Both the position numbers and the translations under genes were made by a program. Shown one piece after another: positions 1-22,382 of a DNA stretch of 25,691 nucleotides (position 1 is the first letter of the stretch; every line of letters begins with the position of its first letter). Where the stretch lies: NCBI GenBank assembly GCA_964496575.1, contig CAZCAC010000127.1, positions 1 to 25,691 on the forward strand. The letters run 5' to 3'. The notes below the pieces were generated by a model. The model did no database searches and was not told the DNA's origin. It was given only the letters and a program-made list of their open reading frames with translations. The stretch is from an uncultured Planctomycetaceae bacterium (lineage in GTDB: Bacteria > Planctomycetota > UBA1135 > GCA-002686595).

Positions 1-813
1 CGCCATCTCCCGTGGTCGCTGATCGGGAGTGAGCTCGTCCACGGCCACCCGCGGGCCAACCTCGGGGGCGGGCGGTTCTTCCCCCGCCCCGCCATCTAGC
101 TGCACCAGTGCCGGTTGAGTCACCGCTTCGGTCGCGACCGGCGCGCCCCACTGCTTCACGACCGCCCCGACCCCGAACCACACCAGAACAGAGAGCGCGG
201 CGAGGATCACTGACGCCAGCATGACCTTGCCCACGGCCAGCCCTGCCAGCACCTTGGCCGTGCCGCCGACCTGAGCCCCCTCCCAGCTTGCCAGCGGGAG
301 CAGTGCCTGGATCCACTCCTGCCGACCGTCCGATTCGTCGTCGAGCCGAGACCTCAACCGCTCCAGCGCTCGCCGCAATCGCGTGCGAACCGTGGCTGCG
401 GGCACCTCCATCCGCATCGCGATGTCCGTAGCGGTGAGACCTTCGTAGTATCGGAGCAGCACCGTGTCGCGATAGGGCTGCTCGAGCTCCAGGACCTTGC
501 TGGCGAGAGATCGTTCCTGCTCGACTCGTTGGGCCACGTCCAGAGCCGAGGGTTCGCTCTCCTCAGCAACTTCCGGGACCCGACGAGTCTCGCGACGCCA
601 GCGCAGACCCGCCTGTCGCCGCACCACGGTCGCAAGCCACGGTCTCGCCGGTCGATTCGAGTTGGGAGGATTGCGCAACGCGGCGACCCAGGTGTCCTGC
701 ACCAGATCGTCCGCAGCCGCGGCGTCCGCGACCAGGCTCCGAGCGAGCGCGGTCAGCCACGCGGAATGCTGCAGAAGACGGTCGAGACTGGCCTGTCCGG
801 GGTGATCGCTCAT
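1..813 (-). CDS. ECF (sigma-70 family, group 4) RNA polymerase sigma factor, fused in frame to a C-terminal extension with one predicted transmembrane helix. 3' end lies beyond the window start (partial).
   Basis: ATG at 813-811 (minus). The hand translation is stop-free to position 1: MSDHPGQASLDRLLQHSAWLTALARSLVADAAAADDLVQDTWVAALRNPP (region 2), then LLRYYEGLTATDIAMRMEVPAATVRTRLRRALERLRSRL (region 4 HTH), then DDESDGRQEWIQALLPLASWEGAQVGGTAKVLAGLAVGKVMLASVILAALSVLVWFGVGAVVKQWG... with no stop. It is absent from the ORF track because there is no in-window stop codon. Confidence 0.8.
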   Translation of the reverse strand, partial: MSDHPGQASLDRLLQHSAWLTALARSLVADAAAADDLVQDTWVAALRNPPNSNRPARPWLATVVRRQAGLRWRRETRRVPEVAEESEPSALDVAQRVEQERSLASKVLELEQPYRDTVLLRYYEGLTATDIAMRMEVPAATVRTRLRRALERLRSRLDDESDGRQEWIQALLPLASWEGAQVGGTAKVLAGLAVGKVMLASVILAALSVLVWFGVGAVVKQWGAPVATEAVTQPALVQLDGGAGEEPPAPEVGPRVAVDELTPDQRPREMA

Positions 814-869
814 CGGTCAATGACCAGCTTGCACTGGTCCCCCGGAGTGTTTCGCAAATCCCGGGATTC

Positions 870-1658
870 TCAGCCCTTCAGCTTCCTGACCAACGATCCC
901 CACACCCCTCGCGGCAGCGCGCGACCGAGGGTCTTCAGCGGCCAGGCCAGCTGCCACGGAAAGGCGAGCACCGGTGAACCCCGCTCCAGCGCGACCACGC
1001 ACCGTCTGGCCGCGTCCTCGACCTCCACCAGGAATGGCATCGGGTGCTCGATCGAGTCGGTCATCGGGGTGCGCACCCAGCCCGGCTGGATGTCGACCAC
1101 CTTCAGGCCACTCTCGTGGAGCTCGATCTGCAACGACTCGAGAAGGGAAGAGAGGGCCGCCTTCGAAGCGGGGTACGCACCGCCTCTCGGCATCGCGCGA
1201 ACGCCGGCGAGGCTGGAGACGCCCGCCAGGGTGCCGGTGCCGCGCGGGAGCATGGCGTGCATCCCCTCGATCAGCGTGACCATCGCGCCCTTGACGTTGA
1301 CGTCGATCACCTCCTCGACGTCCTCCCGGGTCATCTCCCCCGCCGGCGCCGAGCGGCCGATACCGGCGTTGGCGATGACGAGGTCGAAGCCGCCCACCAT
1401 CGCGTCCCAGTGTGCGATCGAATCGGCGATCGCTTTCGGGTCACGAACGTCGAGCTCCGCGGCGTCGGCGCGGCCGCCGCCTCGCGCGATCCCCGCCGCG
1501 AGCTCCTCCAGCAGCTCGAGACGTCGCGCCGTGACGACCACCCGCGTGCCGCGACGGGCCAACTCGAGGGCGATCGCGAGGCCGATGCCGCTCGAAGCGC
1601 CGGTGATGAAGGCGTTGCGGAAGAGCACGAGGTTCAGTCCGCCCCGACGCGAGTGCAC
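870..1658 (-). CDS. Short-chain dehydrogenase/reductase (SDR) family oxidoreductase. The start is uncertain: GTG at 1658 or GTG at 1628. The track ORF 870..2177 over-extends it.
   Basis: Rossmann motif FITGASSGIGLAIALELARRG near the N-terminus. NAG and YPASK (YxxxK) catalytic motifs are present. The track ORF's N-terminal ~170 aa is Arg/Gly-rich and overlaps punA in another frame, so it is rejected. Confidence 0.8.
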   Translation of the reverse strand: MHSRRGGLNLVLFRNAFITGASSGIGLAIALELARRGTRVVVTARRLELLEELAAGIARGGGRADAAELDVRDPKAIADSIAHWDAMVGGFDLVIANAGIGRSAPAGEMTREDVEEVIDVNVKGAMVTLIEGMHAMLPRGTGTLAGVSSLAGVRAMPRGGAYPASKAALSSLLESLQIELHESGLKVVDIQPGWVRTPMTDSIEHPMPFLVEVEDAARRCVVALERGSPVLAFPWQLAWPLKTLGRALPRGVWGSLVRKLKG

Positions 1659-2455
1659 ACCGCCGTGAGCAGCGCGCAGAAGCGTTCGGCGAGAACCCGC
1701 CCCGCCTCGACCACCTCGTCGTGCGAGAGCGGCTCGCCGGTGATTCCCGCCGCCCGGTTGGTGATGGCGGAGATCGCCGCCACCCTCATCCCCGCCGCGT
1801 GCGCGGCGCTCGCTTCGGCAACGGTGCTCATACCCACCGCCTGCGCGCCGCCCCAGCGCAGCATCGAGATCTCGGCCGGCGTCTCGTAGGTCGGCCCCAG
1901 GAGCCCCGCGTAGGTGCCATGATGCAGCTCGATCCCCTTCTCCTCCGTCGCTCCGTCCACTATCGTGCCGAGCTCGCGGTCGTACGGGTTGCCGAGTCCC
2001 TCTTCCCCCTGCATCAGTGGCGTCCGCCCCTGCAGGTTCAGGTGATCGATGATGCGCATCAGCGCCGGGATCTCCCAGTCCGCCTCCAGGCCGCCCGCGG
2101 CGTTGGTCAGGAAGAGCATGCCGATCCCCAGTCGACCGAACGCTCGCACGCAACGCGTCACCTCGCTCGGCCGCCAACCCTCGTAGAGGTGTACACGCCC
2201 CTGCTGGACCACCACCGGCACGCCCTCGACCTTCCCCAGCACCAGCTGCCCCGCGTGGCCGGGAACGGCGCTGGTCGGCATCGCGTCGAGCTCCTCGTAC
2301 GGAATCACTCTCTGGTCCGTCAGCGAATCGGCGAACCCGCCCAGGCCCGACCCGAGCACCAAGGCGATCCGCGCGCCACCGACCCCGTGGGATTCCAGGC
2401 TGCGGGTGAGGTCTTCCAGCGCCAGCGTGGCGTCGTCGATCTGCGGTGTCTTCAT
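1634..2455 (-). CDS. punA: Purine nucleoside phosphorylase, trimeric PNP-I family (inosine/guanosine type).
   Basis: 273 aa with the hallmark blocks of the trimeric PNP family: ALVLGSGLGGFADSL, VPGHAGQLVLG, VHLYEGW, FLTNAAGGL, GTYAGLLGPTYETPAE, AQAVGMSTVAEA and ITNRAAG. ATG at 2455, with GGAG about 9 nt upstream. Confidence 0.9.
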   Translation of the reverse strand: MKTPQIDDATLALEDLTRSLESHGVGGARIALVLGSGLGGFADSLTDQRVIPYEELDAMPTSAVPGHAGQLVLGKVEGVPVVVQQGRVHLYEGWRPSEVTRCVRAFGRLGIGMLFLTNAAGGLEADWEIPALMRIIDHLNLQGRTPLMQGEEGLGNPYDRELGTIVDGATEEKGIELHHGTYAGLLGPTYETPAEISMLRWGGAQAVGMSTVAEASAAHAAGMRVAAISAITNRAAGITGEPLSHDEVVEAGRVLAERFCALLTAVCTRVGAD

Positions 2456-2474
2456 GCGTGTTACTCCGACCGGA

Positions 2475-3785
2475 CTACAGGAAGATACCCGCGACCGTCG
2501 CGGTCATCCAAGAGGCGAAGGCTCCGCCGACCATCGCGCGCAGCGCCAGGCGGGAGATGTCGGTCTTGCGGTCGGGCGCCAGGGGCGTGATCCCGCCGAG
2601 CTGGATGCCGATCGAGGCGAAGTTGGCGAAGCCGCACAGCGCGTAGGCGGCCATCGCGGCGGTGCGCGGGTGCTCGAAGGCCATCTTCACGCCTTCTTCG
2701 TTGCCCAGCATCCCCTGGAGCTGGCCGAAGGCGACCAGCTCGTTGACGGCGATCTTGGTCCCGAGGAGCGAGCCGAAGAGCTTGCAGTCGTGCCACCCAT
2801 CGACGCCCATCAACCAGGCGATCGGCGCGAAGATCCGCCCGAAGATCCAGTTGAGGCTGAGCGTCTCTTCCATCCCCACCCACTCGCCCAGCGCTTCCAG
2901 CGGCCAGTTGACCAGGTTCACCAGCGCGATGAAGGCGATCAGCATGGCAATCACGTTGAGCCACAGCTTGAGCCCGTCAGTGGTTCCGTTGGCCGCGGCC
3001 TCGATCAAGTTGCCCGCGCTGCGGTTCAGGCGCAGCTTCACCTGGCCCGAGGTCTCCGCCACTTCCGTCTCGGGAAGCATGATCTTCGCCACCACGAACG
3101 CCGCCGGCGCGGACATCACCGAGGCGGTGAGCAGGTGCGCCCCGTACTCCTCGCCGATGAAGCCCATGTAGACGGCGAGCACCGACCCGGCGATCGTCGC
3201 GAACCCGCCGGTCATCAGCGCGTTCAGCTCTGAGCTGGTCATCTTGGCGAGATACGGCTTGACCACCAGCGGCGCTTCGGTCTGGCCGACGAAGACGTTG
3301 GCGGCCATCGACATCGATTCCGCGCCCGACACGCGCATCGCCCACGACATCACCTTGGCCATGCACCACACCAGGAACTGCATCACGCCCAGGTGGTAGA
3401 GCACGCCCATCAGCGCACTGAAGAAGATGATCGCGACCAGGCCGGTGCCGGCGAAGGAGAAGATGAAGGCGCTGCCAGGGCCGAGGGTTTCCGCGACGCC
3501 TTCTCGCTCGATCATCAGGTCCTTCAGGACGTCTTGCTTGGCCAGGACGCCGAAGACCATCTCGGCGCCGGGAGCGGCCATCGAGATCACCTTGGTGACT
3601 ATTCCCGCCGCCCAGCCGAAGATCTCGTGGCCGATGCTCGTGGATAGAAAGATCCAGGCGAGCAAGAGCTGCAGCCCCAGTCCTCCGAAGATCACGCGCC
3701 AGGGCATCCGCCCCTTGTGCGAGGAGAGGAGCCAGGACACTCCGCAGAAGAAAGTGAGGCCGATCAGGCCGTGGACGAACTGCAA
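2475..3785 (-). CDS. nupC: Concentrative nucleoside transporter, NupC/CNT family.
   Basis: 436 aa polytopic membrane protein with CNT-family conserved blocks (GxxFxFG, MSxxxxEAPLVV-like region, C-terminal GFANFASIGIQLGG). TTG start at 3785-3783. It lies 19 nt upstream of punA on the same strand. Confidence 0.88.
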   Translation of the reverse strand: MQFVHGLIGLTFFCGVSWLLSSHKGRMPWRVIFGGLGLQLLLAWIFLSTSIGHEIFGWAAGIVTKVISMAAPGAEMVFGVLAKQDVLKDLMIEREGVAETLGPGSAFIFSFAGTGLVAIIFFSALMGVLYHLGVMQFLVWCMAKVMSWAMRVSGAESMSMAANVFVGQTEAPLVVKPYLAKMTSSELNALMTGGFATIAGSVLAVYMGFIGEEYGAHLLTASVMSAPAAFVVAKIMLPETEVAETSGQVKLRLNRSAGNLIEAAANGTTDGLKLWLNVIAMLIAFIALVNLVNWPLEALGEWVGMEETLSLNWIFGRIFAPIAWLMGVDGWHDCKLFGSLLGTKIAVNELVAFGQLQGMLGNEEGVKMAFEHPRTAAMAAYALCGFANFASIGIQLGGITPLAPDRKTDISRLALRAMVGGAFASWMTATVAGIFL

Positions 3786-4005
3786 GGGGAACCTCGGGCT
3801 GGAGACGGGGGCCTATGGAACCGTGGGGGTCGCGCTCGCGCAAGGATCAGGGGACTCACCCCGAGGCGATCCTCGTTCTCGATCGCTGAGGCGAGGCGCA
3901 AGGTCCCGCTCCGGGCCGCGAAACGGCACGGCGGAGGCCGCTGTGCGGAAGCTGCGTCTTTTCGTTGTCCATTCGAGTGCCCGGGGGTATCAGGGAGTCG
4001 GACTC

Positions 4006-5555
4006 ATGAGGCCTCGTCTCACAACCGCGCTCGCCCTCGTCGCCGGAATCGCGCTGGCGATCTGGTGGCTCGTGGCCGTCGCCTGGACGATGCGAGCGAA
4101 CAGGGACCGAGCAGCCTGTCTCCCGAGGAGTCGACGGCCGAGGGGAGCTCTCACCCCGCGGCCCTTCCTCCCCCGCCGGCGACCAGCGACGAGGCACGCC
4201 GATCCGGGGAACGGGAAGACGTGAAGCCCCGGAGCGATGGCGGCGTGACCGGGCGTGGCTCGGAGCTTCCGCGCGTCCCCGACGACTCCATCTGGATCGA
4301 CTGCGAGCTTCTCGCGCCCGGCCAGGTGCCAGCGGACGAGGAGTGCATCGTCGAAGCAGAAGGGGAAATGTACTGGAGCAGCGGTCGGATTATCGAGGAC
4401 CGCTACACGATCGAGGTGGAAGTCGGGGTCCCCTTCCGCGTGGCTCTGGCCAGAGGAACCCGAGAGGCCAGGATCCGGCTGAACGCGCGGTATCACTATC
4501 TGAAAGCCCCCATCGAGATCGATCTCTCGGCGGTCAGAGCCAGTACGGTCGTGATCGAGCCCGAGCTCGGAGGCGTGATCCGAGGTCGGGTGCTGCTGCC
4601 AGGGTCGGCGAATCCTGTCGATGCCGGAAGGGTGGGGGCCACATCGTTGCCTCCACCCGGACACCCCGTCAGGGATTTCGACCTCGACTTTCATGCACCG
4701 GCTGACATGGAGGCGGAAGGGAGCTTCGAGCTGCGCGGACGGGTTCACACCGGTGGGGAGCCGCACGCGGGGTGGCTGGTGGGCTGCGAGAACGACAACG
4801 GCGAGCGAGCCGCCGCCCACTGTGACGACGCCGGGGGATTCGTGATGAATCTAGGATCCCCCGGGCCGTTCCTCTTCAGCTTCTTTCCCAGTGGCCAGGC
4901 CCTCGGCTCCTTGCAGACCCTCCGGGTCGGTCGGGACATCCCGGACCGAGACGTGGTGGAACTGGACTTCGATCTTCCGGCGGGTTGCCTCGCCGGTCGG
5001 GTTCGCCTTCCGGGAGGCGCGCCAGCTCCCGGCTGCTAGCTGTTCCTCGACCTGAGCGCTGCCTGCGAGGGTTCGACCGCGTCGTACGAGTACACCGAGC
5101 TCTCGGTCACCGACTCCGAGGGCAGGTTCCGCTTCACCCCACTCCCGCCGGGCGGCTACGTGCTGCACGCCGGGGGAACCTCGATGGAGCCGGCGGAGAC
5201 CGACACCGAATCCTACGGCGTTCGTCGTCTCGGAGGGCTGCAGCTCGCCCTCGGAGAGGTGAAGGACGACCTGGTGATCGACCTGTCCCCGGCGGGATCG
5301 ATCGAGGGCCTCGTGCTGGCCCCGGACGGCTCGCCCGCGATCGGAGCTCTGGTGAGCCTCGTCGAGGACGACGACTCGTGGGTCGTCGTCTTCTTCTCTT
5401 CGCAAACGGATGCCGACGGCCGTTTCGAGTACCGGCACCTCACCCCGGGTCGAGTGGCGATCCACGCGCGGCAGGGTGACCTCACCAGCGAGGAGAGGGA
5501 GGTCCTCGTCGTCGAGGGCGACGCGGTCGAGGTGCAGCTTCAGCTGAATGAGTGA
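4006..5555 (+). pseudogene. Membrane-anchored protein with carboxypeptidase-regulatory-like (CarboxypepD_reg) beta-sandwich repeats. As sequenced it is disrupted by an apparent 1-nt frameshift near 4086 and an in-frame TAG at 5037-5039. Alternative reading: a 72-aa TM ORF 4006..4224 GTGA-coupled to a signal-less CDS starting at GTG 4221.
   Basis: ATG 4006 is preceded by GGGAG (3993-3997). It encodes the signal-anchor MRPRLTTALALVAGIALAIWWLVAVAW in frame 1; after 4086 frame 1 becomes an Arg-rich tail ending at TGA 4222-4224. Frame 0 reads through 4086..5036 as an S/P/E-rich linker followed by repeats (GRVLLPGSANPVDAG..., GRVHTGGEPHAG..., AGRVRLPGGAPAPGC). It hits TAG 5037-5039 and then continues in the same frame (5040..5555) with canonical repeats: DSEGRFRFTPLPPGGYVLHA and DADGRFEYRHLTPGRVAIHARQGDLTSEEREVLVVEGDAVEVQLQL. 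Confidence 0.45.
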
Positions 5556-5577
5556 TACGGAGCCAGGCTCCGTATCA
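5553..5577. terminator. Perfect 12-bp-arm inverted repeat (TGATACGGAGCC A GGCTCCGTATCA) between two convergent genes; candidate bidirectional terminator hairpin or protein-binding palindrome.
   Basis: The arms at 5553-5564 and 5566-5577 are exact reverse complements. The left arm begins with the TGA stop of the plus-strand gene (5553-5555). The right arm ends with TCA (5575-5577), which is the TGA stop of deoA on the minus strand. There is no U-tract on either side. Confidence 0.4.
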
Positions 5578-6873
5578 CAGTCGCTCGAGGACCAGGGGCC
5601 CGGGCTCGTAGTGGTCTTCGATCCGGATCGCCTCGGCGAGGAGCTCGCGGGCTCGATCAAGGCCTCGGCCGTGGCGGTGGTGAATGGTGCAGATCGACTC
5701 ACCCACCTCGACCCTCTCTCCCGCCGCCCGCCTGAAGCGGAAGCCGACGCCGACGTCGATCTCGTCTTCCAGGCGGACGCGACCGCCCCCGAGCTCGACC
5801 AGGGCGAAGCCGATTCGCTTCAGGTCGTGGAAGCGCAACACGCCGGCGCGATCGACAAACCACTCTTCGCGGTCGGTGCGCTCGGGATCGCCCTGCTCGT
5901 CGAACCAGCGCCCCGGCATCGCGCCCTGCTGCGCACAGATCCGCTCGAAGCACTCGTAAGCGCTGCCATCGTCGAGCGACGCGGCGATTCTCTTCTCGCC
6001 CGCCTCCACGTCGGCTGCGACTCCCGCCATCACCAGCATCTCTCCGGCGAGCGCGCAGCAAAGCTCGCGCAGGTCGGGCGGCCCCTCGCCGCGCAGGCAG
6101 TCGAGGCACTCGAGAATCTCCAGCGTGTGGCCCGCAGCCAGCCCGAGCGGCCGATCCATGGCCGTCTGCAGCACCCGCGCCTGAACGCCCATCCCTCGCG
6201 CGAGGTCGATCATCACCTCGCCCAGCTCCCGCCCCTTCGCGGCATCGGCGAGGAAGGCTCCGCTGCCGAACTTCACGTCGAGCACCAGGCTCTCCGCTCC
6301 CTCGGCGAGCTTCTTGGACATGATCGACGAGGCGATCAGCGGGATCGAAGGCACCAGCCCGGTCACGTCGCGCAGGGCGTAGAGCTTGCGATCGGCGGGC
6401 ACCAGGTCCTCGGTCTGCGCGCCGAGTGCCACGCCGACCTTCCGCAGCGCGTCGTCGAACTCCTGCTCGGAGAGATCGGTGCGGAAACCAGGGATCGACT
6501 CGAGCTTGTCGAGCGTCCCGCCGGTATGCCCGAGGCCGCGCCCCGAGATCATCGGCACCGCCACACCGCACGCGGCCACCGCCGGCGCGAGCGCGATCGA
6601 GACCTTGTCACCGATCCCGCCGGTCGAGTGCTTGTCCGAAGTCGGTCGCCCGAGCCCGTCGAAGCGCATCACCCGACCGGAGTGCAGCATCGCGTGCGTC
6701 CACGTCGCGAGCTCGGCGGGCTCCATCCCGTTGATGAAGATCGCCATCAGGAGCGCCGACGCCTGGTACTCGGGGATCTCGTCCCGGACGTACCCGTCGA
6801 TGAAGAAGTGGATCTCCTCCTCGCTCAGGGCGTGTCCGTCGCGCTTGGTGGAGAGAACGGTTCGGATGTCCAT
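5575..6873 (-). CDS. deoA: Thymidine / pyrimidine-nucleoside phosphorylase. The real start is ATG 6873 (MDIRTV...), not the track start at 6954.
   Basis: N-terminus MDIRTVLSTKRDGHALSEEEIHFFIDGYVRDEIPEYQASALLMAIFINGM. Glycosyltransferase-family-3 blocks are present: SDKHSTGGIGDKVS, GRGLGHTGGTLDKLESIPGF and GSGAFL. ATG 6873 lies 4 nt after the deoB stop (6878-6880), which indicates translational coupling. Confidence 0.9.
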   Translation of the reverse strand: MDIRTVLSTKRDGHALSEEEIHFFIDGYVRDEIPEYQASALLMAIFINGMEPAELATWTHAMLHSGRVMRFDGLGRPTSDKHSTGGIGDKVSIALAPAVAACGVAVPMISGRGLGHTGGTLDKLESIPGFRTDLSEQEFDDALRKVGVALGAQTEDLVPADRKLYALRDVTGLVPSIPLIASSIMSKKLAEGAESLVLDVKFGSGAFLADAAKGRELGEVMIDLARGMGVQARVLQTAMDRPLGLAAGHTLEILECLDCLRGEGPPDLRELCCALAGEMLVMAGVAADVEAGEKRIAASLDDGSAYECFERICAQQGAMPGRWFDEQGDPERTDREEWFVDRAGVLRFHDLKRIGFALVELGGGRVRLEDEIDVGVGFRFRRAAGERVEVGESICTIHHRHGRGLDRARELLAEAIRIEDHYEPGPLVLERL

Positions 6874-6877
6874 GGAT

Positions 6878-8062
6878 TCAGCTCGCGAGCTGCGACAGGA
6901 AGGACTCGCCCGCGCCGGTACCTTCGACGCCCAGCGCCTCGGCCACGGTCGCACCGATGTCGGCGAAGCTGGAGCGAGTCCCCAGATCGACTCCGCCCGC
7001 CACGTTCGGCCCGGTGGCGAGCACGGGCACGTACTCGCGCGTGTGATCGGTACCCGCCTCGTGCGTCGGGTCGTTGCCGTGGTCCGCGCAGAGGATCAGG
7101 AGGTCGTCGCGCTGTAGCTGCTGCTCGAAGACCCGCAAGTCCCCGTCGAACTCCTCGAGCGCCCGTCGATAGCCGACCGCGTCGCGGCGGTGGCCGTAGA
7201 GCATGTCGAAGTCGACGAGGTTGAGGAACAGGAGACCGCGGTCGAGGCTCCCGGCCAGCTTCGTCGCCTGCCGCATTCCGTCGCGGTTCCCTTCGGTGTG
7301 GTGATCCTCGGTCACCCCTCGGCCGGCGAAGATGTCGTGGATCTTGCCGACACCGACCACCGGCAGGCCCGCTCGCGCCAGTCGATCGAGCGTGGTGTCT
7401 CCGGGGGGCTCCAGCGAGTAATCGCGGCGGTTGTACGTCCGCTGGTAGTTCCCGGCCTCGCCGACGAAGGGCCTGGCGATCACTCGCGCCACGCCGAGGG
7501 GATCCAGGAGACGTCGTGCTTCGATGGAGATCTCGAATAGTCGCTCGAGGCCGAAGTGCTCCTCGTGCGCCGCGATCTGGAAGGCGCTGTCCGCGCTGGT
7601 GTAGACGATCGGCTTGCCCGTCCTGACGTGCTCCTCGCCGAGCTCGGCGATCACCGTCGTTCCCGACGCGGGCCGGTTGCAGAGGACCCCTTCGAGCCGG
7701 CCGCGCCGCACGAACGCTTCGATGATCTCCGGAGAGTAGCCGTCGGGGAAGGTGGGGAATGCCCCCTCCAGCGGGCACCCCATCATCTCCCAGTGACCGG
7801 TCGAGGTGTCCTTGCCGGGAGACTCCTCGGCGCAGCGCCCGAACGCCGCTTCCGGAGCGCTCGCCTTCGCGAGCTCCTCCACGCCGGTGACGTTGCCCAG
7901 CCCCAGCTCGATCAAGCGGGGTGTCTCCAGACCCCCGGTTGCGGTGATGATGTGATCGAGGGTGTGCGCCCCCGCATCACCGAAGCGCTCGGCATCGGGT
8001 AGGGCTCCGACTCCCAGCGAGTCGAGCACGAAGACGAAGACTCGCCGGAACTCAGAGGTCAT
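6878..8062 (-). CDS. deoB: Phosphopentomutase.
   Basis: 394 aa. The N-terminus RVFVFVLDSLGVGALPDAERFGDAGAHTLDHI and the metal-binding blocks CADHGNDPTH and TREYVPVL are typical of DeoB. ATG at 8062. Confidence 0.9.
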   Translation of the reverse strand: MTSEFRRVFVFVLDSLGVGALPDAERFGDAGAHTLDHIITATGGLETPRLIELGLGNVTGVEELAKASAPEAAFGRCAEESPGKDTSTGHWEMMGCPLEGAFPTFPDGYSPEIIEAFVRRGRLEGVLCNRPASGTTVIAELGEEHVRTGKPIVYTSADSAFQIAAHEEHFGLERLFEISIEARRLLDPLGVARVIARPFVGEAGNYQRTYNRRDYSLEPPGDTTLDRLARAGLPVVGVGKIHDIFAGRGVTEDHHTEGNRDGMRQATKLAGSLDRGLLFLNLVDFDMLYGHRRDAVGYRRALEEFDGDLRVFEQQLQRDDLLILCADHGNDPTHEAGTDHTREYVPVLATGPNVAGGVDLGTRSSFADIGATVAEALGVEGTGAGESFLSQLAS

Positions 8063-8072
8063 TCGATGCTGT

Positions 8073-8309
8073 TCAGGTGCTCATGGTGTTTTCGAGGACC
8101 GCCTCGATCACCTCTTCAACGGCCTCTTCGAACTCATCGACCCACAGATCCCCATAGTCCTCCAGGAGCATTTCGCGCTCGTCGAAGTCCCAGGTTCCCG
8201 AGGTCGGGTCGAACTCGAACTCGTAGTCGTGTTCGGTGCCGTCCTCATCCGTGATCAAGGCAATGACGATGCAGTCCTGAGCGTCGACCTCCAATCGGAA
8301 AACGGCCAT
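8073..8309 (-). CDS. Small (78 aa), highly acidic protein of unknown function. It is the first gene of the deoB-deoA transcription unit.
   Basis: ATG 8309-8307 is preceded by a perfect GGAGG (8321-8317) at 7-nt spacing. Product: MAVFRLEVDAQDCIVIALITDEDGTEHDYEFEFDPTSGTWDFDEREMLLEDYGDLWVDEFEEAVEEVIEAVLENTMST. It has 26 Asp/Glu against 2 Arg and 0 Lys. The stop is at 8073-8075, 10 nt before the deoB ATG. The rest of the 541-aa track ORF upstream of it is antisense junk. Confidence 0.6.
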   Translation of the reverse strand: MAVFRLEVDAQDCIVIALITDEDGTEHDYEFEFDPTSGTWDFDEREMLLEDYGDLWVDEFEEAVEEVIEAVLENTMST

Positions 8310-8450: not shown

Positions 8451-9614
8451 ATGCACCCCCTCAGGACCCTCCAGGCCGCCCTGCTCCTTCTCCTGGCCGC
8501 GAGCTGCACCAGCTGGCGTCCCGCCGAGGAGTACGAGGGGTGGACCCTGTACGTACAGTCCGGGGAGAGCGTCTCGATCGAGGAGTTCCACGGCGCGGTC
8601 CAGCCCGCTTTCGAGGCGGTCGAGGGCCTGCTCGGCCCCTTCAGCGACCCCGTCCGGGTTCACGCTTGGGATGGCGGGGTGCAGATGGACGCGGGGAATC
8701 ACGGGCACATCACTAGCGACGCCGACGAGGCGATCGAGGAGGTCCCCGGCATCGGCCCGGCGCGCGTGCGGGCCTTCCACACGCGGGGCTCCGGGGGACT
8801 CTTCGACCTCTCCGGGGTGTTCGTGGGCACCGCCGACACCGGCACCGCGGTGCACGAGCTGGTCCACGCCCACCTGGCGGAGGCGGGGGAGCGGTTGCCG
8901 CTGTGGTTCGAGGAGGGCTTCGCCATGATCCTCGGAGACGGCACCATGCGCGAGGGGCGGTGGATCGTCGACGGCCTCGCCTGCTGGCCGTGGCGGGAGC
9001 TGAGGTTGGCGGACCTGAGCGAGGAAGAGGTCGCCAAGTTGCTCACCCTTCGTTCCGGCGAGCCTCACTCGGTTCGCGACAACGTCCTGGTGCACTTCCT
9101 CGGCTGGGCGGTCGTCTTCGACCTGTACCGTGAGCTGGGAGTCCTCGACTGGCGTCGCTTGCTCGAGCGCTTCCAGGCCGCCTCGGATCCGGTGGCCGAG
9201 GCGCGCCGCCGTCTGCGCCGGACGCTGGACGAGGCCACGCCCGTCGGGTGGCTGGAGGAGCGGCTGGAGAGCGAGGACGTCGCGGTGCGGCTCGCCGCCG
9301 CGCGCGGGACCTGGAAGCTCCACTCCCTCGAGGTCCTCTGGCTCACCCTCGCGGCGATCCCGGGCGAGACCGACATCGAGGTCCGCGCGAGCCTGGCGGT
9401 CAACGCGCTGGCCGCCGCGGGGCAGGTCGAACACGGTCGGCGCACGCAACGACGACTCTGGCGGACGCTCTTGCCCGTGCTGCGCGAAGCCGAGCTGCCG
9501 GGGCCCGGCGAGACCTCCGCCTTGCGCACGCTCTACCGCGCGTATCGCTTCGGCAGCGAGCGCTACGACACGCAGGCGGCGCTGGAGCGGTTGGAGCGAT
9601 TCTGGGAGGAGTGA
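8451..9614 (+). CDS. Predicted lipoprotein zinc metallopeptidase (HExxH) with an alpha-helical, HEAT/PBS-like C-terminal region. Alternative upstream starts are GTG 8376 and ATG 8400.
   Basis: From ATG 8451: MHPLRTLQAALLLLLAASC, a signal peptide with lipobox LAAS-C. HELVH at 8853-8867 is followed by EEGFAM, a candidate third zinc ligand. The C-terminus has repeated amphipathic motifs (VAVRLAAARGTW..., EVRASLAVNALAAAG). Codon composition is diverse, unlike the antisense ORF. Confidence 0.65.
   Translation: MHPLRTLQAALLLLLAASCTSWRPAEEYEGWTLYVQSGESVSIEEFHGAVQPAFEAVEGLLGPFSDPVRVHAWDGGVQMDAGNHGHITSDADEAIEEVPGIGPARVRAFHTRGSGGLFDLSGVFVGTADTGTAVHELVHAHLAEAGERLPLWFEEGFAMILGDGTMREGRWIVDGLACWPWRELRLADLSEEEVAKLLTLRSGEPHSVRDNVLVHFLGWAVVFDLYRELGVLDWRRLLERFQAASDPVAEARRRLRRTLDEATPVGWLEERLESEDVAVRLAAARGTWKLHSLEVLWLTLAAIPGETDIEVRASLAVNALAAAGQVEHGRRTQRRLWRTLLPVLREAELPGPGETSALRTLYRAYRFGSERYDTQAALERLERFWEE
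9571..9614 (+). repeat. Left copy of a ~44-bp imperfect direct repeat (the last 14 codons plus stop of the metallopeptidase gene).
   Basis: 9571-9614 cgcaggcggcgctggagcggttggagcgattctgggaggagtga matches 10442-10485 agcgggccgcactggagaggttggagcggttcccggaggagtga at 36 of 44 positions. The encoded peptides are DTQAALERLERFWEE* and DKRAALERLERFPEE*. Confidence 0.6.
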
Positions 9615-9661
9615 GGACGGGCCGGTGGCGAGGGAATTAGCGGATTGATCAACAACGGGCG

Positions 9662-10063
9662 ATGGAAGCACCGTGCGTCGACTCGGCCATCCGGTCATGC
9701 TACCGTTCCGGTCCGATGAGAGCCGTGACCAGACAGGATCCGATTCCCCTCGACGAGCTGCGCAGTCTGGCTGCAGGCCGATTTGGCGATCTGGTCAAGG
9801 CGGTTGTCGACCTCGAACGGAGGATTCTGCTCGTAGACGCGGAGTTGCACGCCGACCAAGAAGCCGAGCTTCTCGCCGGCGGCTCGCAACAGCAAGATCT
9901 GTGGGGGATCAATCTCTATCCAGATCTGCCGGAGGACGAATGGCTCGAATTCGACTCGATGATCAACCTCCGTCCCTCCTCTGGGAATCGGTCCCGTGGC
10001 GTCGACGATCTCGCGACGCGGGAGAGGATCACTGCTCTGGTGGGCGAGCTGGTGCGCCGATGA
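9662..10063 (+). CDS. Hypothetical small protein, cassette gene 1 (about 115-133 aa; the start may be ATG 9716).
   Basis: Stop-free frame 9662-10063 with diverse amino-acid usage (…LDELRSLAAGRFGDLVKAVVDLERRILLVDAELHADQEAELLAGGSQQQDLWGINLYPDLPEDEWLEFDSMINLRP…). The TGA stop (10061-10063) overlaps the ATG (10060-10062) of the next gene in an ATGA arrangement. No family assignment can be made from memory. Confidence 0.55.
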   Translation: MEAPCVDSAIRSCYRSGPMRAVTRQDPIPLDELRSLAAGRFGDLVKAVVDLERRILLVDAELHADQEAELLAGGSQQQDLWGINLYPDLPEDEWLEFDSMINLRPSSGNRSRGVDDLATRERITALVGELVRR

Positions 10064-10401
10064 CGGACCAGAAGCAGCGGGAGATGGCGGCTCGTCGCTG
10101 GTGGACACTCACGCTGGCCGAGCAACTCGGCAACATCGGAAGTGAAGTCAGCCGAGCCCTGAAATGGCGAGGACGCAACCCTCGGATTGCTCAGGGAGCG
10201 GTCGAGCGTGCGCTGGAGCTGATCGACTTCACGCTCGATGACACCCGCCACCGTTCTTCCGTGGCCCGCCTCCGCGAGATCTGCAGGGTCCGGGAGACGC
10301 TCCTCGACTTTCTGGTGGGTACTAACGAGTACCGTTCGACCGAGACTACGCTTCAGCGCTACTTCGATGCATTCGCCGTGGCCGCGGCTCGGCGACGGTG
10401 A
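10060..10401 (+). CDS. Hypothetical 113-aa all-alpha protein, cassette gene 2. It weakly resembles MazG-like / all-alpha NTP-pyrophosphohydrolase-type small proteins.
   Basis: MTDQKQREMAARRWWTLTLAEQLGNIGSEVSRALKWRGRNPRIAQGAVERALELIDFTLDD… The two blocks LAEQLGNIGSEV and AVERALELIDFTL resemble the paired E-rich helices of MazG/dCTPase-like folds. This is an unverified recollection. It is ATGA-coupled to the upstream gene. Confidence 0.5.
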   Translation: MTDQKQREMAARRWWTLTLAEQLGNIGSEVSRALKWRGRNPRIAQGAVERALELIDFTLDDTRHRSSVARLREICRVRETLLDFLVGTNEYRSTETTLQRYFDAFAVAAARRR

Positions 10402-10441
10402 CGATCCCCCATCTATCCCGTTTGATCCTCTGGGACCGACA

Positions 10442-10485
10442 AGCGGGCCGCACTGGAGAGGTTGGAGCGGTTCCCGGAGGAGTGA
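10442..10485 (+). repeat. Right copy of the direct repeat: an orphan 19-codon 3' gene fragment (SSGTDKRAALERLERFPEE*).
   Basis: See the left copy. The frame opens only at 10426, right after a TGA, so this is a remnant and not a gene. Confidence 0.6.
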
Positions 10486-10647
10486 AGCGTGACGCATTCC
10501 TACCAACTACTCCGTATCCGTTCGTGGCACACCCCGAAGACGGCCGCCGTTCCGCGCCCAGCGCGGTGAATCCGCTCCGCTGGCCCTCTCCACTTTCGCC
10601 TCCTTATATATACTCCGGGGCTCCAACCCTCTGACCCATCCGCAGCC

Positions 10648-12984
10648 ATGCAGACCCTGAGCCCCATGCTGAATCCCGAGGCATTGTCCGCCCATCTCGG
10701 GCACTGGAAGAAGACCGGCGACCTGATCGATCAGTGCATCGACCTGATGCTGAACCTCCGCCAGAGCGGACACCCCGGTGGTTCGCGATCGAAGGTGCCG
10801 CTCCTCGTGGCGACGACCCTCGGCGTGATGCGCTGGGACATCCGGCGACCGGAGCTGGCCTTCGGCGACCGTTTCGTCCTCGTCGCCGGGCACGCCAACC
10901 CGGCGGTGTACGCGATGCTCGCGGTGTACAACGAGGCGCTGCGGATCCGCTACGAGCAGACGGGCGACGAGAAGTACCTCGTCCCCAACGCGGAGAACCG
11001 TCAGCTCACCTGGGAGGACCTGCTCACCCTGCGTCACCGCGGTGGTCTGCCGGGGCACGCGGAGATGGAAGGGAAGACCCTCTTCTTCAAGTTCAACACC
11101 GGACCGTCGGGCCACGGTGGTCCCGCGGCGTTCGGTGAGGCGGTGGCGCTCAAGCACGCCGGCGCGGGCGAGGTGAAGGTCTTCGCCATGGAAGGGGAAG
11201 GCGGACACTCCGCCGGTTGTCACCACGAGGTCAAGAACTCCGCGTGGGGCCTCGGGCTCGACAACCTCATCTACCTGATCGACTGGAACGACTTCGGGAT
11301 CGACACCCGCGCCAACAGCGAAGTGATGGCCGGGGACCCGAAGACGTGGTTCGAGCCGTACGGCTGGCGCACCGCCGGCACCGCGGACGGGGAGAACTAC
11401 GAGCAGCTCGGCCAGGCGCTGATGGACGTCGTCCAGGACTCGAAAACCGAAAAGCGCCCCGGGATGGTCTGGGCCAAGATGCGCAAGGGGCGCGGTTACT
11501 ATCTCTACGACGCCCCCAGCCACGGCAAGAGCCACGGCCGCAACTCCGAGATGTTCTGGAAGTGCCGGAAGGACTTCCAGGACCTCTACGGCGTCACCTT
11601 CGAAGGGTTCGGCGATACGAACGACCCCGGTGAGGACGCGGTCCGCGAGATGTCGAAGGGCTGGTTCGAGACTCTCTTCAGCGTGCTGCGCGACGACCAG
11701 GAGCTGGTCGAGTACCTCGCCGACCGCCTGGTCGAGCTGGGCGACTCGGTGCCTCAGAAGCCCGAGGGCTTCCACGCCATCAGCGGGACGAACCTCGCCG
11801 ATGACCGCTCGTGGCTGGACCTCGACAAGCTCCCCGACGAGCTCTTCGTCGCGCCCGGTGAGGGTGCCGCCAACAGGCAGGGCTTCGCCAAGTTCGGCGC
11901 CTGGGCCAACGCGAAGGCGAAGCAGGAAATGGACCGCCCGCTGTTCCTCGCCTGCTCGGCGGACCTCGCCGACTCGACCTCGATCAGCGGTTTCGGCAAG
12001 GGCTTCGGCGACTTCGAGGGCTACGGCTGGTACGAGCGCGACAAGTCCCCCGAGGGCGTGATGTTGCCGCAGCAGATCACCGAGTTCGCCAACGCCGGTC
12101 TGGTCACCGGAGCGGCGACCGTCAACATGTCGGCGGATCCGGAGAACAGCTACGACGGCTACTGGGCCACCTGCTCGACCTACGGTTCCTTCTCGTACCT
12201 CAAGTACGGGATGATGCGGCTGTTCAGCCAGCTGGCGCAGGACTGCCCGCTGAAGCTCGGCAAGGTGATCTGGGTCGCCGGTCATTCCGGTCCGGAGACC
12301 TGTGAAGACAGCCGGACGCACTTCGGCATCTTCGCGCCGGGCGTGACCCAGCTCTTCCCCGACGGCCACGTGATCAACCTCGTGCCGTGGGAGCACAACG
12401 AGGTCGCTCCGGCGCTCGCCGCCGCGCTGCAGACCGATGTGCCGATCATCGCGCTGCACCTGACTCGTCCGGGGGTCACCATCCCCGACCGCAAGGCGCT
12501 GGGCGTTCCCTCGCACCTGGAGGCGGCCAAGGGCGCGTACATCCTTCGTGACTTCGATCCCGCCCGTCCCCAGGAGGGCACGATCATCGTCCAGGGCACC
12601 AGCTCGACCGATTCGATCTTCGAGCTCCTGCCGCGCTTCGAGGAGCCCGGCGCTCCGAACCTCAAGATCGTGGCGGCGATCTCCTACGAGCTCTTCCAGC
12701 TCCAGCCTCGTGAGTACCGGAAGAAGGTGCTGCCGCGTGCCGACTGGATCGACTCGACGGTGATCTCCAACGGCGCCCGCCGCATGATGCACGACTGGCT
12801 GGCGCACAAGATCGCCGAGGACTACGCGATGACCTCCGACTTCGACAACCGCTGGCGCACCGGCGGCAGCCTCGAGGAGGTCAAGATCGAGGCCCAGCTC
12901 GATCCCGAGAGTCTCTGGAACGGGATGAAGAAGTTCGCCGCCGATCGCGACGAGCGGCTGCGGACGTTGACGCATCCGGGCTAG
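10648..12984 (+). CDS. Transketolase-family thiamine-diphosphate-dependent enzyme, atypically long at 778 aa.
   Basis: The transketolase N-terminal blocks GHPGGSRS, DRFVLVAGHANPAVYAML, LPGHAE and TGPSGHGGPAAFGEAVA are present. The ThDP/Mg site reads FAMEGEGGHSAG…LDNLIYLIDWNDFGID, with GEG in place of the canonical GDG (11194-11202). The Pyr domain and a C-terminal domain follow. The antisense 822-aa ORF is rejected. Confidence 0.85.
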   Translation: MQTLSPMLNPEALSAHLGHWKKTGDLIDQCIDLMLNLRQSGHPGGSRSKVPLLVATTLGVMRWDIRRPELAFGDRFVLVAGHANPAVYAMLAVYNEALRIRYEQTGDEKYLVPNAENRQLTWEDLLTLRHRGGLPGHAEMEGKTLFFKFNTGPSGHGGPAAFGEAVALKHAGAGEVKVFAMEGEGGHSAGCHHEVKNSAWGLGLDNLIYLIDWNDFGIDTRANSEVMAGDPKTWFEPYGWRTAGTADGENYEQLGQALMDVVQDSKTEKRPGMVWAKMRKGRGYYLYDAPSHGKSHGRNSEMFWKCRKDFQDLYGVTFEGFGDTNDPGEDAVREMSKGWFETLFSVLRDDQELVEYLADRLVELGDSVPQKPEGFHAISGTNLADDRSWLDLDKLPDELFVAPGEGAANRQGFAKFGAWANAKAKQEMDRPLFLACSADLADSTSISGFGKGFGDFEGYGWYERDKSPEGVMLPQQITEFANAGLVTGAATVNMSADPENSYDGYWATCSTYGSFSYLKYGMMRLFSQLAQDCPLKLGKVIWVAGHSGPETCEDSRTHFGIFAPGVTQLFPDGHVINLVPWEHNEVAPALAAALQTDVPIIALHLTRPGVTIPDRKALGVPSHLEAAKGAYILRDFDPARPQEGTIIVQGTSSTDSIFELLPRFEEPGAPNLKIVAAISYELFQLQPREYRKKVLPRADWIDSTVISNGARRMMHDWLAHKIAEDYAMTSDFDNRWRTGGSLEEVKIEAQLDPESLWNGMKKFAADRDERLRTLTHPG

Positions 12985-20276: not shown

Positions 20277-22382
20277 CTATTCGCCGCCCTCCGCCCAGCG
20301 GCCGATCGCCGCCTCGTCGAGCCGCCCCCAGTACACCCGGACTTCCTCGACGTCGCCGGGGAAGGGATTGGGCCCTTCGTAGGGCCCGACGGTGGACTCC
20401 TCGTCGGCGCCGATCTGCATCCCCTCCGCGGGGCGCTGCGTGAGCAACCGGGCGGGGGCCGCCGCGACCTCTCGCCCGTCGACGTAGAGCACCATCCGGC
20501 CGCCGGCCTCGAGCACCCCGACGAGGAGGTGGCTCCGGCCGGGCTCGAGGGGCTCGGGGGCGGCGACTTCCACGACCTCCTCGCTCTCGCGGATGGCGAA
20601 GGTGGCCCGCCCGTCGTTCAGGTAGAGCGCGTAGCCGTAGCTCTCTCCGCCTTGGGCGACGAGCACTCCCTGGCCCCCGGTCGGCGTGCAGCGAGCGCCG
20701 ACGGTCAGCGGCTTGCCGGAGGGATTACCCGGGGCGGCCACCTCGTCGTCGGGGCCGCGCCAGCGGAACACCTCGCGCAGCTCGACTCGCTCGGCGCGGC
20801 GCTGCACGTCCTTCGCGCGGAGCTCGCGCAGCGGGAGCTCCGGCTCGGTCTCACCGTAGTACAGCTGGAGCCGCTTCAGCTCGGCGGTGAGCTCACGGCG
20901 AATCGGGTCGTACTGGAGGTCGTCGTAGACGCTCTTCAGCTCGTCGGGATCGCGCTCGAGGTCGAAGAGCTCCCACTCATCGAGCTCGTAGTAGCGGATC
21001 AGCTTGTAGCGATCGGTGCGTACCCCGTAGTGGCGGTTGACCATGTGCACCGCGGGGTACTCGTAGTAGTGGTAGTAGATCGACTCGCGCCAGTCGTCGG
21101 GATCCTCGCCGCGCAGGAGCGGCACCAGGCTGCGTCCTTGCATCTCCTCGGGCGGCTCGACCCCGGCGATGTCGAGGAAGGTCTCGGCGAAGTCGATGTT
21201 CTGGACGAGGTGCTCGTCGACGGAGCCGGGCTCGGTCGCACCGGGCCAGCGCACGAGCAAGGGCATGCGCAGCGATTCCTCGTACATCCACCGCTTGTCG
21301 TACCAGCCGTGATCGCCGAGGTAGAAGCCCTGGTCGGAGTTGTAGATGACGATGGTGTTCTCGGCGAGGCCAGACTCGTCGAGGTAGTCGAGCACGCGCC
21401 CGAGGTTCTCGTCGACGGAAGCGATGCAGCGCAGGTAGTCCTTGATGTAGCGCTGGTAGCGCCAGCGAACGAGGTCGTCATCTTCGAGCTTGGCCTCGCG
21501 GAAGGCCTCGTTCTTCGGCTCGTAAGCGGCGTTCCAGACCTCGAGTTGCTCGGGAGTGAGGTTGCCCGGGGGTTTGAGCTTCGCGTCCGACTTGGAGAAG
21601 TGGTTCGCCAGTGTCATCTCCTGCATTCCGCACGCGCTGGTGCGCCCCTGCCAGTCGTCGAAGAGCGTCGCCGGCTCGGGCAGGTCGACATCGTCGAAGT
21701 CGTGGAGGTGTTTCGGCCCCGGCTGCCAGTTGCGGTGCGGCGCCTTGTGCTGCAGCATCAGCATGAAGGGCTTCTCGGGGTCGCGTTCCTCCTTCAGCCA
21801 CTGCAGGGCGAGGTCGGTGAGGATGTCGGTGGTGTAGCCGATGATCTTCTCGGTCCCCTCCGCGCTCTTCAGCGGTGGGTTGTAGTAGGGACCTTGACCC
21901 TTCAGTACCTGCCAATGGTCGAAGCCGGTGGGATCGCTCTTGAGGTGCCACTTGCCGACGATCGCCGTCTGGTAGCCGGCCTTGCGCAGGAGTTTGGGAA
22001 AGGTGACCTGCTCGCCGTCGAACACGATCGTGTTGTCGATCACGCCGTTCCGATGGCTGTGCTTGCCGGTGAGGATCGTCGCCCGGCTCGGCGCGCAGAT
22101 CGAGTTGCCGACGAAGCAATTGCGGAAAAGCACCCCCTCGTCGGCGAGTCGATCGATGTTCGGCGTCTGGTTGAGCACCGACCCGTAGGCACTGATCGCG
22201 TGCGAGGCGTGGTCGTCGGTGAAGACGAACAGGATGTTCGGATACGGTACCCGGTCAGAATCCGCCGCTATCCTCGAGCGGTCCGGCATCGCCGTGCCGC
22301 CCGAGGATAGCGGCGGATCCTGACCAGGTACCGCACAGGCGATGACGACGAGAGCGCAGCCGATCGAGGTGGACGTCTTCAT
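20277..22382 (-). CDS. Formylglycine-dependent sulfatase (type I) with an additional ~180-aa C-terminal beta-rich domain, possibly concanavalin/LamG-like. The start is ATG 22382, not the track GTG at 22406.
   Basis: Signal peptide [20 protein letters not shown]. Sulfatase signature [21 protein letters not shown] (C-x-P-x-R). Also [50 protein letters not shown] and DPDELKSVY. The C-terminus reads …[28 protein letters not shown]…[23 protein letters not shown]. Confidence 0.85.

Follow-up and report, generated by a model that had tools for sequence, protein, structure and literature searches.

The 25,691-nt contig CAZCAC010000127.1 of an uncultured Planctomycetaceae bacterium (the whole stretch that was analysed, hereafter the window) carries a gene for a HExxH lipoprotein, called here the peptidase gene, the 3' end of which is present twice. 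Between the two copies lies a small cassette consisting of a DUF5674 gene and a partner gene, and this cassette is the subject of the present analysis. An earlier note, made from the sequence alone, had interpreted the gene pair as accessory DNA that entered at the 3' end of the peptidase gene. The locus contains the following features, given with their position in the window and strand (a dot stands for no strand).

8451..9614 (+), HExxH lipoprotein gene (387 aa), the target gene, intact; identical to P0001, with 372 homologs
9566..9614 (+), proximal repeat copy, the working last 16 codons and TGA of the peptidase gene; 41/49 identical to the distal copy, peptide in agreement with the family consensus
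9615..9676 (.), left junction filler, 62 nt; in no other cassette locus and not homologous to the spacers of relatives
9677..9715 (+), conserved cassette leader, promoter-like; nucleotide homology between cassettes of different genomes begins here
9716..10063 (+), DUF5674 gene (115 aa); Pfam PF18924, E=5.9e-30; G+C content at third codon positions (GC3) 0.70
10060..10401 (+), partner gene (113 aa); ATGA overlap with the DUF5674 gene at 10060-10063; GC3 0.74
10402..10436 (.), cassette trailer, the first ~12 nt of which are common to other cassettes, and a 23-nt right filler; homology ends at ~10413
10437..10485 (+), distal repeat copy, an orphan, decaying 3' end of the peptidase gene; frame closed, conserved residues changed
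10486..10647 (+), native spacer and upstream region of the transketolase-like gene; 10497-10750 aligns with 7516-7770 of the relative L001 at 79%
10648..12984 (+), transketolase-like (TK) gene, the conserved downstream neighbour; Pfam Transketolase_N

The repeat is formed by the last 49 nt of the peptidase gene (9566-9614) and positions 10437-10485, which are identical at 41 of 49 positions and stand in direct orientation, 871 bp apart from start to start and with 822 nt between them. Over the 44-mers pointed out in the earlier note, the identity is 36/44 as claimed there. The proximal copy, on the + strand of the gene ending at 9614, reads CGACACGCAGGCGGCGCTGGAGCGGTTGGAGCGATTCTGGGAGGAGTGA, and the peptides of the two copies, DTQAALERLERFWEE and DKRAALERLERFPEE, each followed by the stop, are in the same frame and both end with TGA. 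Both edges of the similarity are sharp, the right one coinciding with the stop codon, and the longest identical run is 10 nt. Among the 44-mers of the window spaced 100-3000 bp apart, no other pair reached 36/44 identity, and no third copy of the 49-nt repeat was found in these 25.7 kb, which cover only part of the genome. No equal repeat was found in 20 first-order Markov (composition-preserving) shuffles of the window.

The arrangement is present base for base through both junctions in no fewer than eight contigs, which come from different JGI and ENA samples, so that the mis-assembly about which the earlier note had cautioned does not account for it. One ENA scaffold of the same population (L110) has 10 N and aberrant sequence inside the proximal repeat (2140-2170). 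Scaffolding at the repeat probably produced the N run, which might also conceal heterogeneity of the population at this junction. The scaffold was considered as an empty or variant allele and rejected as such, since it shows a scaffold N-gap.

The frame of the distal copy is closed upstream by a TGA at 10423-10425, and the copy carries three changes (T to K, Q to R and W to P), each of them a departure from what close homologs have. Of the 36 closest peptidase homologs, 34 have T at the position of its K and 30 have Q at that of its R. The third change falls in the C-terminal motif of the family, RFWE[ED], in which W is found in 116 of 120 homologs and L in four. Since the distal copy has lost family-conserved residues, we conclude that it is a decaying orphan gene end, as previously proposed, and that the proximal copy is the one under selection. 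With P in none of the 120 homologs, the ending RFPEE reflects decay rather than an ancestral allele, and the empty site that the earlier note had predicted, with a peptidase gene ending in RFPEE, has no counterpart among them. The mismatches between the copies fall 2/3/3 on the three codon positions, and the differing codons are four synonymous and three nonsynonymous. Native homology to L001 picks up at 10497, 11 nt past the distal stop, which places the distal copy at the original site of the gene end.

The gene order deoB, orf78, peptidase gene and TK gene is kept in the relatives L001, L007, L008 and L009, none of which has the pair, and a fifth relative without it, L002, keeps the upstream gene order only. 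No orphan gene end or scar was found in these five. A single gene end and no cassette, as the earlier note had anticipated for empty sites, are thus seen in L001, L002, L007 and L009; these are orthologs only 59-79% identical and not strain-level sites. The spacer between the peptidase and TK genes measures 64 bp in L007 and 144 bp in L009, and a TATACT-type box upstream of the TK gene is common to L007, L008 and L009. In L001, the same spot holds an unrelated 351-bp filler with a Cys-rich open reading frame (ORF) of 52 aa (7165-7515), and in L008 a PMT-family glycosyltransferase gene (4671-6420). As three lineages have different fillers there (the DUF5674 pair here, and those of L001 and L008), the spacer is a variable spot.

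The product of the first cassette gene matches PF18924 with 103.9 bits (cut-off 27) over profile positions 4-109 of 109. Gene calls and homologs of 115 aa, with homology beginning at the ATG at 9716, place the start there, and not at 9662 as in the earlier note, whose description of an ATGA-coupled pair between the repeats otherwise stands. Its invariant residues are K/D/R/H/D/N. An AlphaFold2 model (mean predicted local distance difference test score, pLDDT, 82) has an alpha/beta fold with no significant structural neighbour in the PDB or among viral structures, and no mention of DUF5674 was found in the literature searched. Through the ATGA overlap, the partner gene is translationally coupled to the DUF5674 gene. 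Its protein had no family match in Pfam, NCBIfam, PADLOC or PHROGs, and was modelled by AlphaFold2 as a helical bundle (pLDDT 91) with generic structural matches only. Structural comparison of the models revealed a recombinase-like fold in neither protein.

The leader in the window contains GTCGAC, followed after ~17 nt by CATGCTACCGT, with the ATG ~10 nt further on. Aligned leaders of other cassettes show a GTCGAC/TTGAC box, ~17 nt, and then CATGCTACNGT or TAGAAT ~10-15 nt before the ATG. A strict sigma-70 consensus promoter scan of the leader gave nothing, and a terminator scan of the junctions nothing useful; from the aligned boxes, we infer that the leader may act as a promoter. Nucleotide homology from cassette to cassette spans only 9677 to ~10413 of the window. 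The mobile unit therefore appears to consist of the promoter and the two genes, ~0.74 kb including the promoter-like leader, with no terminal repeats. The fillers (9615-9676 and 10414-10436) match nothing, the spacers of relatives included. In agreement with the earlier note, no integrase or transposase gene lies between the repeats, nor beside them, where the neighbours are the peptidase and TK genes.

DUF5674 comprises more than 8,000 proteins, has thousands of metagenomic homologs and was found at no fewer than 340 loci when one genome per GTDB species was counted. The hosts belong to the Acidobacteriota, Eisenbacteria, Aegiribacteria, Actinomycetota, Omnitrophota, Patescibacteria, Planctomycetota, Gemmatimonadota, WOR-3, Chlamydiota and others. 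Eighty of these species loci were fetched, and the partner lay immediately downstream in 79; the remaining contig ends too early. The other neighbour genes vary from locus to locus, the only recurrent family being the large Ser/Thr-kinase/TolB-like family of Acidobacteriota, and no integrase, transposase or other recombinase family recurs near the cassette in 85 loci. Among ~85 loci, 20 from Acidobacteriota have the cassette among Ser/Thr-kinase genes (including L040:3477-5495, L064:280-2473 and L098:1157-7225).

Homologs with ~40% identity were found on cyanobacterial conjugative plasmids, each with an overlapping hypothetical gene of ~120 aa downstream. Large Nostocales plasmids (L102, L103) often carry two DUF5674 homologs each; in Trichormus variabilis, IS66 and IS630 elements surround the pair. 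A search for a vehicle gave no match in 50,697 phage records, and IMG/VR contained a single distant match. P0196, present on 76 contigs, was considered as a case of an identical cassette in different contexts and rejected, as all 76 share one context and represent one widely sampled organism.

The GC3 of the pair (0.70-0.74, against 0.87-0.92 for the deoB, peptidase and TK genes), its absence from the orthologous loci and its scattered occurrence as a fixed two-gene unit show that the pair is foreign to this locus and was horizontally acquired. The central claim of the earlier note, that the pair is accessory DNA at the 3' end of the peptidase gene, is thereby borne out.

The flanks of every cassette locus were searched against each other for direct repeats with E<1e-5, with same-size intervals shifted by 2-3 kb as controls. 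Direct flank repeats were found at 11 of 75 cassette loci and in 1 of 182 control intervals (Fisher p=7e-6), and inverted flank repeats at none of the 75. An ungapped version of the test gave 4/69 and 0/299, respectively. The repeats are ends or conserved parts of host genes, with another sequence in each genome; they are 35-175 nt long and 82-94% identical, none of the 11 cases exceeding 94%. Their spacing is ~0.8-1.3 kb in several independent cases, and the orientation of the cassette relative to the target gene varies.

At L022, the repeat (~147 nt, 94% identity) comprises the 3' 92 nt of a 5S rRNA gene and its terminator, the full 5S gene standing beside the cassette and a truncated copy with a lower score beyond it. 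This locus (380-4363) holds three copies of 5S rRNA in 4.3 kb: a full one at 506-622, a truncated one at 3072-3181 and another full one at 4098-4214. Repeats with 5S sequence also enclose an unrelated Na+/H+ exchanger/TrkA_N gene (1022-2614). It appears that two insertions took place in succession downstream of an rRNA operon, each duplicating 5S sequence, and the enclosed exchanger gene argues for a generic insertion process that the proteins of the cassette do not catalyse.

The repeat at L027 is the last 105 nt of a convergent GYD-domain gene. Its orphan copy on the far side has a 5-nt deletion and keeps the stop codon. The mismatches fall 3/1/10 on the codon positions, that is, 10 of 14 on the third, and the differing codons are seven synonymous and three nonsynonymous, a pattern which indicates that the two copies diverged as functional genes. 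The repeats at L038 and L098 are tRNA-like 3' halves that gave no tRNA call with ARAGORN or Rfam, and they are accordingly fragments identified by eye only. About 250 nt from the distal tRNA-like repeat beside the L038 cassette, positions 5267-5344 of L038 (- strand) match the group II intron catalytic domain below threshold, with 37.6 bits against a gathering score of 40. At L040 and L064, the repeats are kinase segments, and kinase fragments truncated at complementary ends stand on the two sides of the cassette, which suggests insertion into, or recombination among, kinase paralogs.

The event at the peptidase gene belongs to the class 'insertion with long target duplication' (Nobusato et al. 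2000, Gene 259:99; Furuta et al. 2010, PMC2853133). Since recombinase-less insertion with target repeats of more than 30 bp is known for restriction-modification genes (PMC2853133), the 'undescribed type' of cassette considered in the earlier note was an overstatement.

We give an even chance to the following account as a whole: that 9615-10436 is an acquired, self-contained unit, that it came with a donor-borne gene end by homology-facilitated illegitimate recombination, and that its gene pair is of an addiction type. The unit, comprising the promoter-like leader, the DUF5674 gene and its coupled helical-bundle partner, would have been horizontally acquired and inserted into the short peptidase-TK spacer without a recombinase of its own. 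The incoming DNA may have derived from a relative that already had the cassette directly behind the orthologous gene, and would thus have brought its own gene end. Homologous recombination inside the peptidase gene would then account for one side, and illegitimate joining, 49 nt upstream of the recipient's stop codon, for the other; a single crossover with a circular intermediate would give the same product. Such an event would leave two copies of the last 49 nt of the peptidase gene, the proximal one being the surrogate end and the distal one the displaced original. The copy in the gene body would be kept functional by selection, and the copy joined to the native downstream sequence would decay.

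Several observations favour an imported gene end. The third-position bias at L027 fits copies that diverged as functional genes, and the similarity ends exactly at the stop codon both in the window and at L027, where both copies keep their stop. The repeated segments are all conserved and thus possible anchors (5S, tRNA-like sequences, kinase motifs, a C-terminal motif), and no repeat pair exceeds 94% identity. The surrogate end proposed in the earlier note is therefore plausible at the peptidase gene, its direct support coming from the parallel locus L027.

A number of points weigh against this account. The cassette was found on 5/5 contigs that encode the identical peptidase and on 8/8 that encode the identical TK protein, and no strain-level empty site was among them. 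No donor was found either: a metagenome scan with the peptidase gave nine loci, none with the cassette, and the closest cassettes (78-84% nucleotide identity; L096-L101, L016, L017 and L026) lie in unrelated contexts with no peptidase fragment. The repeat in the window, with eight differences distributed 2/3/3 over the codon positions, is too short to decide, and because at least four of the eight must be later decay, the copies could have begun identical. A stretch of 49 nt of imperfect homology is also short for RecA-mediated recombination. The repeats of L040 and L064 could merely mirror the abundance of kinase paralogs in Acidobacteriota. Finally, no toxin, antitoxin or defence homology was found for the pair in Pfam, NCBIfam, PADLOC or PHROGs beyond DUF5674 itself.

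The two gene ends may instead have been produced in situ, a possibility that we regard as real and rather unlikely. Foreign DNA consisting of the cassette only would have been inserted at a break at the stop codon, and ~49 nt of recipient sequence would have been copied to both sides, by widely staggered cuts and fill-in or by template switching during repair. The copies would have been identical at the start and have diverged as the orphan decayed. A model of this kind was put forward for restriction-modification units with repeats of 46-420 bp, often over a gene start or stop (PMC2853133). It is in keeping with the decay-type changes in the distal copy (at least 4/8), with the failure to find a donor having a peptidase-linked cassette, and with the 5S-bracketed exchanger gene of L022, which points to a generic process. 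However, duplication in situ leaves unexplained the third-codon-position bias at L027, the exact end of similarity at the stop codon in both protein-coding cases and the conserved nature of all repeated segments. It is also at odds with the identity of the repeats, as there is no near-identical pair among the 11 cases (maximum 94%).

We consider it improbable that the locus is the remnant of a site-specific integrative element, in which an integrase-bearing island entered the 3' end of the peptidase gene through an attP site with a surrogate end. The integrase and other cargo would later have been deleted, or the unit would have been mobilised in trans, and the repeats would be attL and attR, as the earlier note had suggested. 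Tyrosine-recombinase elements classically leave direct repeats at the 3' end of a gene and reconstitute that gene, and the tRNA-like 3' halves at L038 and L098 are typical att sites. Repeats of the tRNA type may reflect site-specific recombination (PMC2853133). Against this, the same cassette lies between entirely different host repeats in other genomes, which leaves it without an att site of its own. Neither the 62-nt and 23-nt fillers nor their surroundings contain an integrase gene or fragment, and the 85 loci have no recurrent recombinase family beside the cassette. The tight spacing of ~0.8-1.3 kb in several cases would need the same near-complete decay each time, and the longest identical core in the window repeat is 10 nt.

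A very improbable reading is that the pair is an autonomous minimal mobile element, one protein of which itself drives insertion beside gene 3' ends with long duplications. If true, this would imply a recombinase or break-inducing activity of a new kind and explain the long-target-duplication pathway. The strong enrichment of the footprint around the cassette counts in its favour. It is disfavoured by the exchanger gene of L022 with the same 5S bracketing and by the codon positions at L027, which point to homology-driven import.

It is barely credible that the pair is an ancient resident, ancestral here and lost in the relatives, and that the repeat is an old tandem-duplication remnant unrelated to acquisition. 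The 16% divergence of the repeat does show that the event was not recent, and all sampled members of the population carry the cassette. On the other hand, the GC3 of the pair is ~0.2 off all neighbouring genes, and the four relatives with adjacent peptidase and TK genes (L001, L007, L008 and L009) as well as L002 lack both pair and scar. The pair is, moreover, scattered over phyla in unrelated contexts, with the same flank-repeat footprint at other target genes. Chance similarity or an assembly artefact, for which the N run inside the proximal repeat of L110 could be cited, can practically be dismissed in view of the 0/20 shuffles with such a repeat, the conserved frame and stop codon, and seven other contigs from different samples and assemblers that are identical or one base off through both junctions.

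Two known kinds of element were rejected. An insertion sequence, other transposon or miniature inverted-repeat transposable element does not fit the lack of inverted flank repeats (0/75), the direct repeats of 35-175 nt and the lack of conserved ends. For an integron cassette, the stretch that the cassettes share behind the second stop codon, only ~12 nt, cannot accommodate an attC site, and the flanking repeats are host gene ends; no window-wide search for intI was made.

Elsewhere in the window, a very acidic 78-aa ORF (MAVFRLEVDAQD...EEVIEAVLENTMST) without a Pfam match lies at 8073-8309 on the - strand and is transcribed away from the peptidase gene. All relatives examined have it conserved in this position, at 46-79% identity. 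A near-perfect hairpin at 22245-22333, with two 43-nt arms that are 88% complementary and 3 nt apart, is the longest inverted repeat of the window and matches no Rfam family. Inverted repeats of 34 nt, 79% complementary and 161 nt apart, were found at 24821-25049. Rfam gave no match on the window as a whole.

For this genome, the results mean that 9615-10436 is accessory DNA and that 10437-10485 is a pseudogene fragment and not a gene. More generally, about one in seven DUF5674 loci has flank repeats of host genes, which amounts to many independent natural insertions of a single cargo. The pair is tiny and is found in hundreds of species over many phyla. The recurrence of the footprint around one small cargo makes this class of insertion more tractable, and the DUF5674 data set can tell duplication in situ apart from the import of a surrogate gene end anchored by homology. 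The analysis also singles out DUF5674, a Pfam family still uncharacterised, and its unnamed partner as candidates for a selfish or addiction-type module.

Among integrative elements, phage 21 and e14 in icd and tRNA-targeting islands bring along a surrogate 3' end of the gene that they target, and cis-mobilisable elements (CIMEs) are integrase-less derivatives of such elements. The peptidase locus resembles them in its duplicated gene 3' end, the reconstituted gene and the orphan end on the far side. It differs in having no integrase and no element-specific att site, in repeats that vary from genome to genome and in the small size of the insert (0.8 kb).

Homology-facilitated illegitimate recombination has reportedly been described in naturally transformable bacteria by de Vries and Wackernagel in 2002 and Prudhomme et al. 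in 2002, and is said to use anchors of hundreds of bp and usually to give deletions, not duplications. Its likeness to the account preferred here lies in the combination of one homologous anchor with one illegitimate joint and no element-encoded enzyme, and it can account for an imported end beside the retained original and for fillers of donor origin. Here, by contrast, the anchor would be 49 nt, the product is a duplication and no donor has been identified.

Type II toxin-antitoxin and other addiction modules share with the cassette two small overlapping genes (115 and 113 aa) behind a common promoter-like leader, a patchy spread over phyla and distant homologs of the pair on conjugative plasmids; the insertion behaviour is like that of restriction-modification addiction modules. 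The rather high sequence conservation of the pair is unlike toxin-antitoxin modules, and no informative structural neighbour points to a toxin or antitoxin. From the behaviour of the pair rather than from homology (its small coupled genes, its own leader, the patchy spread, the plasmid homologs and the restriction-modification-like insertion), we tentatively suggest that it could be a selfish, addiction-type (toxin-antitoxin-like) or defence-type module, a reading that we rate as possible and on balance doubtful.

The closest comparison is with insertion with long target duplication itself, a class documented since 2000, mainly for restriction-modification genes, to which the present case adds a new cargo and new phyla. 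In this class, restriction-modification units are inserted without another mobile element between direct target repeats of more than 30 bp (46 to more than 400 bp), which often cover a gene start or stop and leave the target gene intact (PMC2853133). The mechanism is unsolved, with double-strand breakage as a hypothesis, and the repeats permit amplification (PMC2853133); partial duplications in rRNA operons have been interpreted along the same lines (PMC3457768). The peptidase locus departs from the class in its cargo, the DUF5674 pair instead of a restriction-modification system, and in its empty sites, which are orthologs 59-79% identical and not strain-level ones. The cassette loci depart from it in repeats that are 82-94% identical instead of near-identical and, at L027, differ mainly at third codon positions, which suggests that one copy was imported. 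The shared features are a small unit without transposase or integrase (822 nt here, the limit of the class being under 20 kb), direct target repeats of more than 30 bp and of variable length (35-175 nt across the loci), a repeat that covers the end of an intact neighbour gene, an insert of atypical G+C content and a cargo that behaves as a selfish gene pair.

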